DNA from: Gammaproteobacteria bacterium
GTDB lineage: Bacteria; Pseudomonadota; Gammaproteobacteria; SZUA-152
Assembly (NCBI GenBank): GCA_029882975.1
Contig: JAOUJW010000015.1
Span: 6,450-70,449, forward strand
Direction: 5' to 3'
Length of the DNA stretch: 64,000 nt
In this document: positions 49,975 to 61,713 of the stretch, one piece after another
Layout of the letters: each line of letters begins with the position of its first letter
Position numbering within the stretch: position 1 is the first letter of the stretch
Program-made: the position numbers and the translations under genes
Notes under the pieces: model-generated
Databases searched by the model: none
Told to the model about the DNA's origin: nothing
The model's input: the letters and a program-made list of their open reading frames with translations, nothing else

Positions 49975-51220
49975 TATGGATCAACTAATTAGTTTGGGGA
50001 TTGCCTTGGCTCTGGGCCTGCTGGTGGGGCTGGAACGCGGCTGGCAGGAACGTGAGGCCGCCGAAGGCAGCCGCATTGCCGGCATTAGAACATTTGGTTT
50101 AATCGGATTATTGGGTGGTTTGTGGGCCTTACTGGCCGGCAACTCCCAATATTCGGATATTACTCTAGGGTTTGCCTTTGTAGGCCTGGCAATTATTCTT
50201 ATCGTAGCCCACACCGTCGATCGGGGCTCACAACGCAACTACGGTGTCACCACGATTATCGCCGCGCTCATCACTTTTGTACTGGGCATTCTCACGGTAT
50301 TGGGAGAAAAAAATGTTGCTGTTGCAGCGGCTGTGGCCACCACGGTTTTACTAAGTCTAAAACCCGTGCTACACCAATGGATTCAAAAAATCGAAATCCT
50401 GGAACTGACCGCCGCCCTAAAGCTGTTATTAATATCCGTGGTATTGCTTCCGGTATTACCGGACAAAGGCTTTGGTCCCTGGGAAGCACTAAACCCATAT
50501 GAGATCTGGTGGATGGTGGTACTCATTGCCAGTATCTCCTTCATCAGCTACGTCAGCATGAAACTGTTTGGCGCTCATCACGGTCTCTTGCTCACAGGCT
50601 TTCTGGGAGGAATCGCTTCTTCCACCGCAGTTACTTTGAATTACTCCCATATGGCTCGCACCCTTAACATTCACCGGGTTTTAGCGGCGGGGATACTCAT
50701 TGCCTCTGCCACCATGTTTCCCCGGGTGTTATTGGAAATCGCGGTTATCAACCATGAAATGATCCCCTTAACGGCAACACCTTTGCTGGCCATGACCACT
50801 GTCAATGTTTTGGGTGCGTTTTGGTTATGGCGCCATCAGCCGGATACCTTGAGCCCACAAGAGCTGGCTCGATCCAAACCCTTTGAACTACTCCCGGCAC
50901 TGCGCTTCGGTTTACTGTTGGTCATCATTATGTTGCTGGCTCAGGCTTTTAAGCACTGGCTGGGTGATACGGGGATTTATGTACTCGCCGCTTTCTCCGG
51001 AATAGCTGATGTCGATGCCATCACACTCTCTTTGGCCCGTATGGCACGCAATGGCCTGGCTGATGAGATCGCGGCCAATGCCATTATCATCGCCACTATT
51101 GTTAACAGCGCAGTAAAAACCGCGCTGGTGTATTTCATTGGCGGCATGCCTCTATTCCGTTACGTAATTTGGGTATTTCTATTGATATTGGCAGTTGGCA
51201 CCGGACTGGCCGTAATGTAG
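49975..51220 (+). CDS. MgtC/SapB-family membrane protein with a DUF4010-type C-terminal domain
   Basis: About 414 aa. MDQLISLGIALALGLLVGLERGWQ... The GLERE/G motif is typical of MgtC N-termini. Many TM helices. The track ORF begins at 49718, but that extension overlaps the ppk start, so the start was set to ATG 49975. Confidence 0.7.
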
Positions 51221-51484
51221 GCCACACGACTGCAGTAATCCTTAAACCCATCACTATTGTTTCAAAATGTTCATATTTGAACATGGCGAAACAACTCACA
51301 CATATTCCTACACAGCCACAACTCCCGCAGCCTTGTTTCAATACTCTACAAGCGTAGTTTCATAATTCTGTGAACTTGGGATGACAAGCATTAACTAAAA
51401 TCAGAGCCATATGAAATAGTGTCTTTTGAATTCATTCAGCTCAAAAACAATCAAAAGGCGACATTTAACCGGAGAACACTAATC

Positions 51485-51610
51485 ATGAAAAAAATATTAC
51501 TTGCTTTGCCATTATCCTTCGCGTTCATCGGTGTTGCCGTGGCAGCGCAAACAGACTTTTACAAACAAAATATTGAACTGGATGGCATCTGGGGTGATAC
51601 GGATTGTTAA
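51485..51610 (+). CDS. Small secreted peptide precursor, paralog 1 (41 aa: MKKILLALPLSFAFIGVAVAAQTDFYKQNIELDGIWGDTDC)
   Basis: GGAGA RBS 10 nt upstream. Sec-type signal peptide with AxA cleavage site (VAA|Q). Mature peptide of about 20 aa ending in Cys. Near-identical paralog at 52982. Hairpin plus T-run follows. Confidence 0.55.
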   Translation: MKKILLALPLSFAFIGVAVAAQTDFYKQNIELDGIWGDTDC

Positions 51611-51620
51611 TGGTTATAGG

Positions 51621-51647
51621 AGGCCGACGACGTCGCCCCCCCATTTT
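51621..51647 (+). terminator. Weak GC hairpin plus T-run after peptide gene 1; could act bidirectionally (convergent with the 51666 gene)
   Basis: GGCCGACGACGTCGCC followed by CCCCCATTTTT. Confidence 0.3.
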
Positions 51648-51665
51648 TGTATTCACTTAAGACAA

Positions 51666-52037
51666 CTAAAACCAATCGTGTATAGTCGCACTGCGTTCGT
51701 ATAAAAACTCGCCATCACTGGCGGCCACGCAGATTTTGATGAATATCTTGTCTTCACCGACCGCTTCATCCAATATCTCACAAGGCATAGCAAAACTACG
51801 TTTCACCGGCATCACCGCATCCCGTTCCACAACATGAGTATCGTACGGCGGTGAACCCAGGGGTTTATCGCGGAGCAAATCATCACCAAATAAAATCACG
51901 CAAACGGAAAATGAAACGCCGGCCTGATATTTTTCCTTGTCGATACGCAATGCATAGGAATAATCGATGCTGCAAATATGACCGGAAACAAAAGACGTTC
52001 GGGTAATGCTGAAATCAACCGAATCCACTGATATCAT
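51666..52037 (-). CDS. Hypothetical cytoplasmic 123-aa protein
   Basis: ORF without signal peptide or recognisable motif. Convergent with peptide gene 1. In the same orientation as the lipoprotein gene upstream of it. Confidence 0.45.
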   Translation of the reverse strand: MISVDSVDFSITRTSFVSGHICSIDYSYALRIDKEKYQAGVSFSVCVILFGDDLLRDKPLGSPPYDTHVVERDAVMPVKRSFAMPCEILDEAVGEDKIFIKICVAASDGEFLYERSATIHDWF

Positions 52038-52093
52038 AATGGGCCTTTATGTTGATACCGCTTCTTACATGCATGCCTTATACAAGCATAAAT

Positions 52094-52109
52094 AAACCCA
52101 AGTGGGTTT
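52094..52109 (-). terminator. Palindrome AAACCCAagTGGGTTT downstream of the lipoprotein gene
   Basis: 7-bp perfect inverted repeat followed by an A/T-rich stretch on the minus strand. Confidence 0.35.
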
Positions 52110-52214
52110 GCCACATTGCAACCAAATTTAATTGATTTATCTCAAAATAAAAGTCACTTTGGAGTGTGGGCACCAATCCGTACCCACTGGAATCATTTCC
52201 ACATGAACCTGGAC

Positions 52215-52757
52215 TCAGCGTTCGCCCAGGCGACTGTCCAGCTCAGGGCGCCGCAGCCATCGGGCTACATCTTTGCCCAGAGCTTTAACCGTCCGGCCTA
52301 ACACGGAGCAGGAACCCTTGAACCCGGCGAAGGCGCCACCGCCGGAAGAACGAGCAGCGACAAAGGAACCGATTTTTTTACCGTTTTCATACAATTCACC
52401 GGAAATTTCCGTAAATTTATTGTGGTGTCCGCCGCCAAAACCGCCCCATGCATGCCCCTGGCTCAGGGCGTCAGTGATACGAACCTTCAAAACCTTACCA
52501 GGATCATTACTGGATACCGAAGCTTTTTGCACAAAATTGATGCGGTATTTTTTCCCAAATATCACCAAAAACTCAGACAGTTTTTCCGGCAGGCGGCACT
52601 CCTGTTTGATATTACCCGCAATTTTATTGTTATCTGCATACGGGATTAAGGCATCGATACTGACAGAATCCATGGGACCGGAAGGCGTTTCTTCCTCCGG
52701 CATGGTTTGGCAGGCGACGAGCGATAAACCCATGAGTAAAACCATTAATTTCTTCAT
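52215..52757 (-). CDS. Predicted lipoprotein, 180 aa, function unknown
   Basis: Signal peptide with lipobox (LSLVAC). Gly-rich segments (GHAWGGFGGGHH; SSGGGAFAGFKG). Confidence 0.6.
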   Translation of the reverse strand: MKKLMVLLMGLSLVACQTMPEEETPSGPMDSVSIDALIPYADNNKIAGNIKQECRLPEKLSEFLVIFGKKYRINFVQKASVSSNDPGKVLKVRITDALSQGHAWGGFGGGHHNKFTEISGELYENGKKIGSFVAARSSGGGAFAGFKGSCSVLGRTVKALGKDVARWLRRPELDSRLGER

Positions 52758-52845
52758 TCTCCATCCCTTCCATCGTTAAATTGATAGTTTGTCCGCCTCA
52801 CAATTCATACCAGCTTGGGCGACACTTGCTCATTTTTTTAGAATT

Positions 52846-52861
52846 CTGTGAACTGCGTCAC
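52846..52861. promoter_or_regulatory. Perfect CRP-consensus-like palindrome TGTGA-N6-TCACA about 120 bp upstream of peptide gene 2
   Basis: TGTGAactgcgTCACA seen in the sequence. It overlaps the duplicated AATTCTGTGAACT motif. Confidence 0.3.
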
Positions 52862-52981
52862 AAACCACGGTTGAACGGTATCAAATAAATGTCAATTTGT
52901 ACGTAACAAACAATGCTCGCTTGAACACTGCGGCAAAACAATAATCCGAAACGACGCGACATCTATAGGAGTACTCCAAGT

Positions 52982-53110
52982 ATGAAAAAAATTGCACTCG
53001 CTCTACTGTTGACCTTTGCTTTCACCGGTTTAGCAATGGCGGCTGATGATAGTTTTTATACCCAGCAAAACATCGAACTGGATGGCAATTGGGGGGACTC
53101 CGACTGCTAA
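52982..53110 (+). CDS. Small secreted peptide precursor, paralog 2 (42 aa: MKKIALALLLTFAFTGLAMAADDSFYTQQNIELDGNWGDSDC)
   Basis: AGGAG RBS. Signal peptide (AMA|AD). Conserved C-terminal FY.Q.NIELDG.WGD.DC shared with paralog 1. Followed by a strong rho-independent terminator. Below the 60-aa cutoff of the ORF track; found by eye. Confidence 0.55.
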   Translation: MKKIALALLLTFAFTGLAMAADDSFYTQQNIELDGNWGDSDC

Positions 53111-53156
53111 GCCAAACCGCCTCTTGTCGAATGACCGGAGGACATGCGAATTACGA

Positions 53157-53186
53157 CGGGAGTCCATGGCGGCTCCCGTTTTTTTT
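53157..53186 (+). terminator. Rho-independent terminator after peptide gene 2 (CGGGAG-loop-CTCCCG then T8)
   Basis: Seen in the sequence: acgacgggagtccatggcggctcccgtttttttt. Confidence 0.5.
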
Positions 53187-53419
53187 GCCCGAATAGAACT
53201 ATTTCACACCATTTCGCGGTTATTTAATATCCCCCAAAGTTCTTATCCCCAACATCCTACCAAGCTTTACCAGGCGGCGCAAAATAGCTCTGGTGGTCAT
53301 GGTTTTTGGTAGGATTCTTGTATGCAATATGTGTGTCATCTGTATTTTTTTTACATTCTATGACCTATAATTCTTCAACAATTGGTTATTTTTAACTCTT
53401 TAATGGACGTATATAGGGA

Positions 53420-54331
53420 ATGGCCAAAGCACATTTACTTCAGCAACTAAGAGAGGAAATTCGTCTTCGTCACCTCAATGTGAAGACCGAAAACGCCTAC
53501 ATCAGCTGGATCAAACGATTTATTCTGTTTCACGATAGAAAACACCCCAGGGATTTGGGCCGAAATGAAATACGTGCGTTCATCTCCCACATAACTCAAG
53601 AGAAAAAGGCACCGCCTGACTCTCACAATCAGGCATTGGCCGCTTTGGTGTTTCTCTACAAACATGTCGTCCCATTTAGACACATTCAAACTGAACCGGT
53701 TCACGAAACCAAGCCGCCAACTGTTTTTTCGCACGAAGAGGCAATGGCTGTATTGGAGAAACTCCACGGTGCGTTTTGGCTGATTGCTTATTTGATGTAC
53801 GGATCAGGCTTGCGTGTACAGGAATGTCTATCACTGCGCGTCAAAGACCTGAATTTTGACACTCGCCAAATTAAAGTCAGAGGCCATGGCTCCTGCAAAG
53901 AACGCGTGGCAGTATTCCCCTCCATACTCAGCGAACCTTTGCACTTGCAGTTGTACGCGGTAAAAACCTGGTTTGATCGAGACATGAAAGCCGGTCGCTA
54001 TAAAAACGACCCCCGGTGCGCCAATGATCCGTATTGGGAGGAACAGTACGAATGGCAGGATCAATACGTATTCCCCAGCTTTACCCCTGTTTCCGAAGAA
54101 ATCGATAGCTTTATTCTACGCAGCCACATAGATGCACAACGGTTACAGCGTATTGTAAAACAAGCGATTCAGGACGCCGGCATAAGTAGAAACGCCAGCA
54201 TCCACACATTCCGACATTCCTTTGCTTGTGAAATGCTTAAAAGAGGTAATGATATGCGTTTCCTGCAACGAATTTTAGGCCACAATCGTATCTCTACGAC
54301 TATGATCTATTCCCGAGTGGAAAGCATTTAA
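53420..54331 (+). CDS. intI: Integron-integrase-like tyrosine recombinase (IntI family)
   Basis: 303 aa. Strong resemblance to IntI1 along the whole length. N-terminal ..[21 protein letters not shown]... matches IntI1 [47 protein letters not shown] matches [65 protein letters not shown] matches [39 protein letters not shown], including the catalytic Y. It also has the extra segment between patches II and III that is characteristic of IntI. Confidence 0.75.
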   Translation: [303 protein letters not shown]

Positions 54332-61597: not shown

Positions 61598-61641
61598 CCA
61601 AATGACATGCAGATGAAACTTTTATGACATTTATATTACAG
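61598..61641 (-). promoter_or_regulatory. Pho box: four 7-bp CTGTCAT-like direct repeats at 11-bp periodicity upstream of pstS
   Basis: Minus strand: CTGTAATataaATGTCATaaaaGTTTCATctgcATGTCAT, located 45-90 bp upstream of the pstS start. Confidence 0.55.
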
Positions 61642-61713
61642 TACGCTGAAGTAGCGCCGACACAGAGTGCCGGCTTTGACAGCGCAAACAACTCCGGGGA
61701 ACACGAAGAGCAC

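Follow-up and report, generated by a model that had tools for sequence, protein, structure and literature searches.

Two stand-alone genes for a rare family of small exported peptides ending in cysteine in an uncultured gammaproteobacterium

Two small peptide genes and the family they belong to

We analysed a 64-kb stretch of a gammaproteobacterial contig (JAOUJW010000015.1; hereafter the window, with coordinates counted from its first letter) and found that it contains two stand-alone genes for a rare and previously unnamed family of small exported peptides. Both lie on the plus strand. pep1 (51485-51610) encodes a 41-amino acid precursor, MKKILLALPLSFAFIGVAVAAQTDFYKQNIELDGIWGDTDC, and pep2 (52982-53110) one of 42 amino acids, MKKIALALLLTFAFTGLAMAADDSFYTQQNIELDGNWGDSDC; the mature peptides predicted from them are (A)QTDFYKQNIELDGIWGDTDC and ADDSFYTQQNIELDGNWGDSDC, respectively. 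An initial annotation, made from the letters of the DNA alone, had taken the two genes for paralogous copies, which our comparisons bear out, and had described a common motif, FY.Q.NIELDG.WGD.DC. The motif is present in both products, with the qualification that a one-residue indel separates FYKQN in pep1 from FYTQQN in pep2. It was also correct that pep2 is absent from a list of open reading frames (ORFs) drawn up at 60 amino acids: its longest ORF is 42 amino acids, and the gene was therefore missed at that cut-off, at which pep1 appears as a 63-amino acid ORF with a GTG start. The product of pep2 is identical to a database entry (P0001, 'hypothetical protein OEZ68_08765'), and that of pep1, which scores 76.7 bits against a hidden Markov model (HMM) of the peptide family, is P0146 in the exhaustive search described below.

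Each gene had further been credited with a ribosome-binding site (RBS), a Sec-type signal peptide and a terminator of its own, and most of this held. An RBS of the GGAG type lies about 10 nt 5' of the ATG in both cases (GGAG at 51471-51474 for pep1; AGGAG at 52967-52971 for pep2), both precursors begin with a signal peptide, and pep2 is followed on the plus strand by an intrinsic terminator (53155-53188), made up of a hairpin with a 10-bp GC-rich stem (53155-53180) and a T-run, with a fold energy of -31.5 kcal/mol (z = -2.9). Equivalent hairpins follow the stop codon of the peptide gene at three further loci (L001, L032 and L033). The terminator of pep1 fared less well: the terminator-like hairpin and T-run 3' of this gene (51619-51649, plus strand) are weak and no better than shuffled sequence (z = -0.6), and the hairpin sits in a 55-nt gap common to pep1 and a convergent gene for a 123-amino acid protein. 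The peptide genes do bracket two minus-strand genes, for this protein and for a 180-amino acid lipoprotein, but the bracketed pair is co-directional and not mutually convergent, as had been stated. The real layout is that pep1 is convergent with the 123-amino acid gene and pep2 divergent from the lipoprotein gene.

A word-indexed homology search with pep2 returned only pep2 itself and one relative, P0002. When 1.84 billion representative proteins were searched exhaustively with a HMMER profile (E <= 1e-3), 12 proteins of 41-56 amino acids matched, nearly all of them end to end; together with P0002 they make 13 distinct family sequences. Conservation in relatives, set at the outset as a check on the two genes, was thus found. 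Family members are 41-47 amino acids long, the single protein of 56 amino acids having been called from an upstream start; a locus carries one to three of them, and the surrounding genes vary. All relatives are short and have the same C-terminal Cys end. Since no longer protein carries the motif, pep1 and pep2 are not fragments of a disrupted larger gene, an outcome that the initial annotation had itself named as one that would tell against it.

Its statement that the peptides belong to no known family was also confirmed, there being no significant match in Pfam, NCBIfam or the PDB sequences; in the last of these, nothing but an artificial signal peptide matched at E <= 0.1. A literature search for the motif found nothing relevant. 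At the DNA level, scans of GTDB species representatives, JGI metagenomes, IMG/VR, plasmids and phages added no further members, and the plasmid, phage and viral collections contained none at all. Scans of GTDB genomes and JGI metagenomes with back-translated peptide alignments were saturated by the generic MKKI[AL]LAL and confirmed nothing, and a DNA pattern scan for NIELDGxWG gave just chance matches within unrelated larger ORFs. The family is therefore very rare, with 13 sequences among some 15 billion proteins, all from uncultured bacteria.

What unites these sequences is a compact set of features. By heuristic reading, every one of the 13 has K or R in the n-region, then a hydrophobic core, then a small-x-small motif at -3/-1 (AMA, AVA, AAA, ALA, AHA, AYA, AFA, ASA, VYA, SSA or VAA). 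The predicted mature peptide is 20-26 residues long throughout, in keeping with the original estimate of about 20 residues with a terminal Cys, and has a net charge of -3 to -6. Its core reads Q-N-I-E-[LM]-D-G-x-[WFML]-G. The mature part contains a single Cys, which is always the last residue and mostly follows D or E; this Cys, the Asn and the Asp are invariant in all 13 members. In no member does a Cys follow the signal peptide within a lipobox, L-[AS]-[GA]-C, as it would in a lipoprotein processed by signal peptidase II.

Evidence that the genes are translated came from a Nei-Gojobori comparison of pep1, pep2 and their orthologues in L001 and L032, in terms of the proportions of synonymous (pS) and non-synonymous (pN) differences. 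Over the whole gene, pS among these four sequences is 0.71-0.91, meaning that synonymous sites are saturated, and replacements are few; between pep1 and pep2, for example, pN is 0.18 and pS 0.88. The mature core is the most constrained part, with pN of 0.05-0.15 against pS of 0.78-1.13 among the four, and pN of 0.05 against pS of 1.03 between pep2 and L001. Across FYTQQNIELDGNWG, these last two have eight codon differences, every one of them synonymous. The signal-peptide region is less constrained (pN 0.21-0.26), as regions of this kind are expected to be. Saturated synonymous sites together with so few replacements are not what a non-coding element or an opposite-strand ORF would yield, and we conclude that pep1 and pep2 are real, translated and selected genes.

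Strain polymorphism did not add to this comparison. L004 is near-identical to window positions 50871-53712, and its 19 differences are all clustered (e.g. at 50879-50956, 51757-51761 and 52501-52502) and consist of 17 C-to-T and two G-to-A changes, which makes them uninformative for selection. The pattern suggests damage by cytosine deamination, or an artefact of the assembly, and not ordinary polymorphism.

Upstream elements and chromosomal neighbourhood

The regions upstream of the two genes had been described as duplicated, with a distal element and a GCGACAT box in each, and we find both in both copies. The distal element is a 13-mer, AATTCTGTGAACT, which includes a TGTGA half-site and lies on the plus strand at 51364-51376 upstream of pep1 and at 52842-52854 upstream of pep2. 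These are the only two matches in the window at one mismatch or fewer, and both are exact, against 0.08 expected. Because it is identical between the paralogues despite saturated synonymous sites, the 13-mer is probably functional. The GCGACAT box, recognised by sequence reading and alignment, is found just 5' of the RBS on the plus strand (51458-51464 and 52956-52962); that of pep2 is conserved in L001 too.

Between the divergent lipoprotein and pep2 genes lies a perfect palindrome of the CRP/FNR-family type, TGTGA-N6-TCACA (52847-52862, with no strand assigned), the sole perfect match in the window. At the orthologous position it is perfect in L032 and has two mismatches in L001, and the best match upstream of the lipoprotein genes at peptide-less loci has at least three. 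The palindrome is thus without a counterpart at the peptide-less loci, and therefore tracks the peptide gene. Footprinting of the window, L001 and L032 revealed three conserved blocks, namely the palindrome, TATCAAA and ATTGTACGWAACA. This pattern of conservation suggests that a CRP/FNR-family regulator probably controls pep2 and its orthologues through the palindrome. pep1 retains the left half-site only, within the common 13-mer, and the L033 member has no site at all. A second, weaker CRP/FNR-like site, ..GA-N6-TCAAA with two to three mismatches, is present 22-23 bp 3' of the perfect palindrome at all three loci (window 52870-52885, L001 919-934, L032 702-717), where it overlaps the TATCAAA block.

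Other forms of control were also considered. Although ppk, ppx, phoU and pst genes lie on either side, a Pho-box array like that of pstS was not seen upstream of the peptide genes, and control of this kind was rejected. An Rfam scan of 49-56 kb gave nothing relevant, and a conserved fold in the 5' untranslated region (5' UTR) was not found.

This last result bears on the possibility that the signal is not cleaved, in which case the product would be a single-pass inner-membrane protein with an acidic periplasmic tail of about 20 residues, acting as an anchored regulator or in the manner of a type I toxin. The very short ORFs, easily overlooked by annotation, the hydrophobic N-terminus, the multi-copy intergenic occurrence and the conserved upstream elements do recall type I toxins and small membrane proteins (Hok, Ldr, Ibs, MgrB-like). 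However, the peptide family keeps its signal-peptidase site, with small-x-small at -3/-1 in 13 of 13 members, the hydrophobic region is short and signal-peptide-like, and it is the acidic tail and not the hydrophobic segment that is most conserved (pN 0.05-0.15 for the core, as given above, against 0.21-0.26 for the signal). Nor was an antisense RNA or a structured 5' UTR detected at the peptide genes. We consider a membrane-anchored product unlikely.

The genes around pep1 and pep2 are arranged in the order MgtC/DUF4010 (+), pep1 (+), 123-amino acid gene (-), lipoprotein gene (-), pep2 (+), intI (+), a low-molecular-weight phosphatase/ArsC-like gene (-) and phoU-pstBACS-phoRB (-), with ppk and ppx on the other side of the cluster. 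Further out, the window consists of ordinary chromosomal core genes (BamB, HisS, the isc operon, PutA, PilT, FimV and Asd). The lipoprotein gene (52215-52757, minus strand) lies 5' of the 123-amino acid gene (51666-52037, minus strand). Its 180-amino acid product has the lipobox LVAC and an LptE/PelC/CsgG/PqiC-like fold, and belongs to a family with 338 matches, including Xanthomonadales and Nitrospirales. The 123-amino acid protein has no signal peptide and an Ig-like beta-sandwich fold (AlphaFold2 model, pLDDT 81), and 22 of its 23 homologues are exactly 123 amino acids long. Fold searches with the two proteins returned generic folds only (LptE/PelC-type and beta-sandwich, respectively).

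The initial annotation had joined these two genes and the two peptide genes in a single module, in which the peptide might be a partner or substrate of the outer-membrane lipoprotein. A divergent lipoprotein-peptide arrangement does occur at three loci: L001 and L032, which come from other samples, have lipoprotein (-), peptide (+) and intI (+) genes arranged as in the window, with the pep2 orthologues at the same position, the lipoproteins about 58-59% identical and the integrases 69-74% identical to those of the window. However, these three loci have one chromosomal neighbourhood in common, and the arrangement could be merely inherited. Elsewhere the genes come apart. L005 has MgtC, 123-amino acid, lipoprotein, intI and PhoU genes in window order, and no peptide in either its 570-nt lipoprotein-intI gap or its 93-nt gap between the 123-amino acid and MgtC genes. 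In L028, the closest relative on the MgtC side (86% identity), the gap between the MgtC and 123-amino acid genes is only about 28 nt, which makes pep1 an addition specific to the lineage of the window. L005 and L028, the closest relatives of the 123-amino acid and MgtC genes, keep the lipoprotein, 123-amino acid and MgtC genes, and lack the peptide wherever the sequence could be checked.

The same holds more widely. L006 to L010 have the lipoprotein gene with no peptide nearby, as does every lipoprotein context fetched outside this lineage, and L029 to L031 have the 123-amino acid gene without the lipoprotein. Conversely, at L033 and L034 the peptide gene follows a HAMP-PAS histidine-kinase operon and adjoins an unrelated 163-amino acid gene, with no lipoprotein, 123-amino acid or intI gene, and the contig of P0148 carries three small tandem genes (46, 45 and 44 amino acids) divergent from a LysR gene, of which the 45- and 44-amino acid products are family members, again with neither the lipoprotein nor the 123-amino acid gene as neighbour. 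The four genes of the supposed module are therefore distributed independently, and the peptide gene stands alone, with a tendency to be multi-copy. The module was not borne out, and the peptide genes form no functional unit with the lipoprotein, the 123-amino acid protein or the integrase. With co-occurrence this inconsistent, and a lipoprotein fold that is generic, a role for the peptide as partner or substrate of the lipoprotein is very improbable. A 144-amino acid gene that follows the lipoprotein gene in L006 was also examined and is unrelated to the 123-amino acid protein.

The presence of intI raises a different question, which is whether the peptide genes are cassettes of an integron array, captured by the adjacent integrase. 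The gene (53420-54331, plus strand) had been described as integron-integrase-like, and rightly: its product scores 272 bits against TIGR02249 (cut-off 265) and aligns over its full length with VchIntIA (PDB 2A3V; E = 1.4e-49), the IntI-specific insertion included. As with gene cassettes, the peptide genes lie directly 5' of a genuine integron-type integrase and their presence differs between related genomes. However, a crude custom scan of both strands of the window for attC-like sites (RYYYAAC...GTTRRRY with paired inner arms) found none. In addition, pep1 and pep2 are on the intI strand and pep2 reads towards intI, not away from it as a cassette would; the lipoprotein, 123-amino acid and MgtC genes are chromosomal and syntenic across diverged genomes; and all these genes are also found away from any intI. 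For intI itself, we note that it is kept at the same chromosomal spot beside the pho regulon in four diverged lineages (window, L001, L005 and L032). A captured array is thus hardly credible, and intI seems to be a chromosomal integrase that lacks a cassette array, none having been detected, beside peptide genes that are not cassettes. Just 5' of intI (53330-53419), a block of about 60-100 nt, TTTTTTTT.CA..CTATGACCTATA.TTCTTCAACATTGGTTATTTTAACTC, is strongly conserved across loci and may represent an attI site or the promoter of intI.

Possible functions of the mature peptide

If the features of the family are taken at face value, the precursor would leave the cytoplasm through Sec, with signal peptidase I cleaving after the conserved small-x-small (AxA-type) site. 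Cleavage would free an acidic peptide of about 2.3 kDa, with 20-26 residues and one C-terminal thiol, into the periplasm and possibly beyond. We speculate that the C-terminal thiol and the acidic N-x-E-x-D-G loop are its working parts. A lone thiol in the oxidising periplasm would be expected to engage in a disulfide, whether in a homodimer, in a heterodimer of pep1 and pep2 or with some other partner, or else to serve as a metal ligand; the loop, being rich in carboxylates, could then take up a divalent cation. To judge from its invariance, the terminal Cys must be central to function. A thiol-terminated periplasmic peptide that binds a cation or forms disulfides is the explanation that we tentatively favour over the others, as a best guess.

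The cation-binding part of this proposal goes back to the suggestion, made in the initial annotation, that the peptides bind calcium. The core can be set in the 12-residue register of a calcium loop, with N at position 1 (13/13), E at 3 (11/13), D at 5 (13/13), G at 6 (12/13), a hydrophobic residue at 8 (13/13) and D or E at 12 (11/13), and the Cys directly after position 12. The register, the extracytoplasmic setting and the nearby Cys are all shared with EF-hand and DxDxDG calcium loops, including the Excalibur motif DxDxDGxxCE. Unlike these, the peptide has Asn (position 1) and Glu (position 3) in place of Asp, and, since it ends at position 13, it has no exiting helix.

Several observations weigh against the proposal. 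None of ten mature peptides matched any Pfam profile at E <= 10, those of EF-hands included, and hhalign against the EF-hands of calmodulin and parvalbumin gave a probability of 0.8% over three aligned columns, a result equalled by 13 of 100 shuffled controls; EF-hand homology was rejected on these grounds. Positions 1, 3, 4, 8 and 13 violate the canonical PROSITE-type EF-hand pattern. Loop positions 2 and 4 are conserved hydrophobics, unlike those of EF-hands, and would equally fit a beta-hairpin around a D-G turn, and two of the 13 sequences are without D or E at position 12. The CRP-type site, being missing upstream of pep1 and of the L033 member, is not family-wide, and the peptide neighbourhoods that could be examined amount to four distinct ones. 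Calcium binding as such is allowed by the residue pattern alone, whereas the link to EF-hands failed.

A second explanation for the same features is signalling: a membrane sensor would read the peptide, diffusible or periplasmic, by analogy with Sec-exported pheromone precursors or with small proteins that modulate histidine kinases. The precursor is built accordingly, with a Sec signal peptide and then a short conserved C-terminal product; the L033 gene lies directly 3' of the HAMP-PAS histidine-kinase operon; the tandem genes of the P0148 contig (three, with two confirmed members) are divergent from a LysR regulator; and the CRP-type site suggests conditional expression. However, no receptor gene is consistently adjacent, and in the window, L001 and L032 the peptide gene has no kinase beside it. 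The sensor kinases of L033 and L006 have only the generic kinase core in common, and the idea that they are linked was rejected. Moreover, general porins would not let a highly acidic peptide of 2.3 kDa through, and exporter genes are missing from the vicinity.

The closest parallel for such a signal is the Phr pheromone precursors of Bacillus, which are likewise about 40 amino acids long, combine a Sec signal with a short C-terminal product, and are encoded by stand-alone genes, often as several paralogues. There is no sequence relationship: the match to the NCBIfam PhrK model (NF038040) reaches 12 bits where the cut-off is 35, and is confined to residues 1-21 in the signal peptide. The peptide genes also adjoin no Rap or other receptor gene, and it is the whole tail of 20-26 amino acids that is conserved here, not just a pentapeptide. 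Finally, because the host is Gram-negative, unlike Bacillus, Sec export here ends in the periplasm. Taken together, we regard a signalling role as a minor possibility.

A bacteriocin-like or toxic peptide would also be small, secreted, multi-copy and patchily distributed. However, most membrane-active bacteriocins are cationic and this peptide is strongly acidic, with a charge of -3 to -6; no immunity, ABC-exporter or lysis gene was found in the contexts examined; and the family is absent from the plasmid, phage and viral collections. A toxic role is therefore quite unlikely.

Still less can be said for a precursor of a ribosomally synthesised and post-translationally modified peptide (RiPP), with a core modified enzymatically, for instance at the C-terminal Cys. 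What recalls RiPPs here is the combination of a conserved core with a C-terminal Cys, both of them typical of some such precursors. Against this, no gene for a radical-SAM, YcaO or LanD/HFCD enzyme, a peptidase or a transporter lies near the peptide in the four neighbourhoods, and a search for a modifying enzyme, protease or transporter found none within +/-10 kb in the window and L033, nor on the P0148 contig. The precursor also has a Sec signal peptide instead of a leader peptide, which means that export precedes any cytoplasmic modification. We regard a RiPP as extremely improbable.

For a thiol-bearing exported peptide, a close comparison among Gram-negatives is the heat-stable enterotoxin STa, which is also a small Sec-exported periplasmic peptide with cysteine chemistry expected to need periplasmic oxidation. 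STa has a pre-pro organisation and six cysteines, which form three internal disulfides, and is borne on plasmids or transposons. The peptide family differs in having one Cys, in being acidic and chromosomal, and in its absence from the plasmid collection. To our knowledge, no such thiol-ended exported peptide system has been described in Proteobacteria. The broader idea that these peptides represent a new class of Gram-negative thiol-ended exported peptides, of about 2.3 kDa, acidic, present as one to three paralogues, switched by a cyclic AMP-CRP-type system and periplasmic or extracellular, perhaps serving as a metal or calcium chelator or a redox-active signal, is one that we advance with considerable doubt.

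Small secreted peptides are badly under-annotated in Gram-negatives, and few have known roles. The present family has a sharp signature, consisting of a Sec signal, a QQNIE[LM]DGxWG core, a lone Cys at the end and a strongly negative charge. This signature, together with clear purifying selection, makes it a well-founded candidate for a new periplasmic peptide function, be it in thiol or metal chemistry or in signalling. Its function is not inferable by computation alone, and the mature peptide is short enough for direct synthesis and testing. A family that is very rare, confined to uncultured hosts and without a constant partner gene is probably of limited general importance.

Further observations on neighbouring genes

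The ppx, ppk, MgtC/DUF4010, phoU, pstBACS and phoRB genes of the window form a phosphate/polyphosphate cluster, which is broken by the integrase, lipoprotein, 123-amino acid and peptide genes. Upstream of pstS (61600-61660, minus strand) there are four TGTCAT-like Pho-box repeats with 11-bp phasing. A 17-nt inverted repeat, TTGTTTCAAAATGTTCA / TGAACATGGCGAAACAA, with a 4-nt loop, is found at 51257-51294, about 40 nt 3' of the MgtC/DUF4010 stop codon and 5' of the pep1 promoter region, and may be the MgtC terminator or an operator.

At L029 the 123-amino acid gene again adjoins phoU and is close to CHAD, PPK2, PPK1 and PPX genes, which suggests that the protein is tied to phosphate or polyphosphate metabolism rather than to the peptide. 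L029 (GCA_975852575.1) and the protein P0059 belong to contigs filed under the cyanobacterium Kaarinaea lacus. The PhoU, PPK and 123-amino acid genes on these contigs, together with a lipoprotein homologue, look gammaproteobacterial, and the contigs probably derive from a heterotroph in a non-axenic culture.

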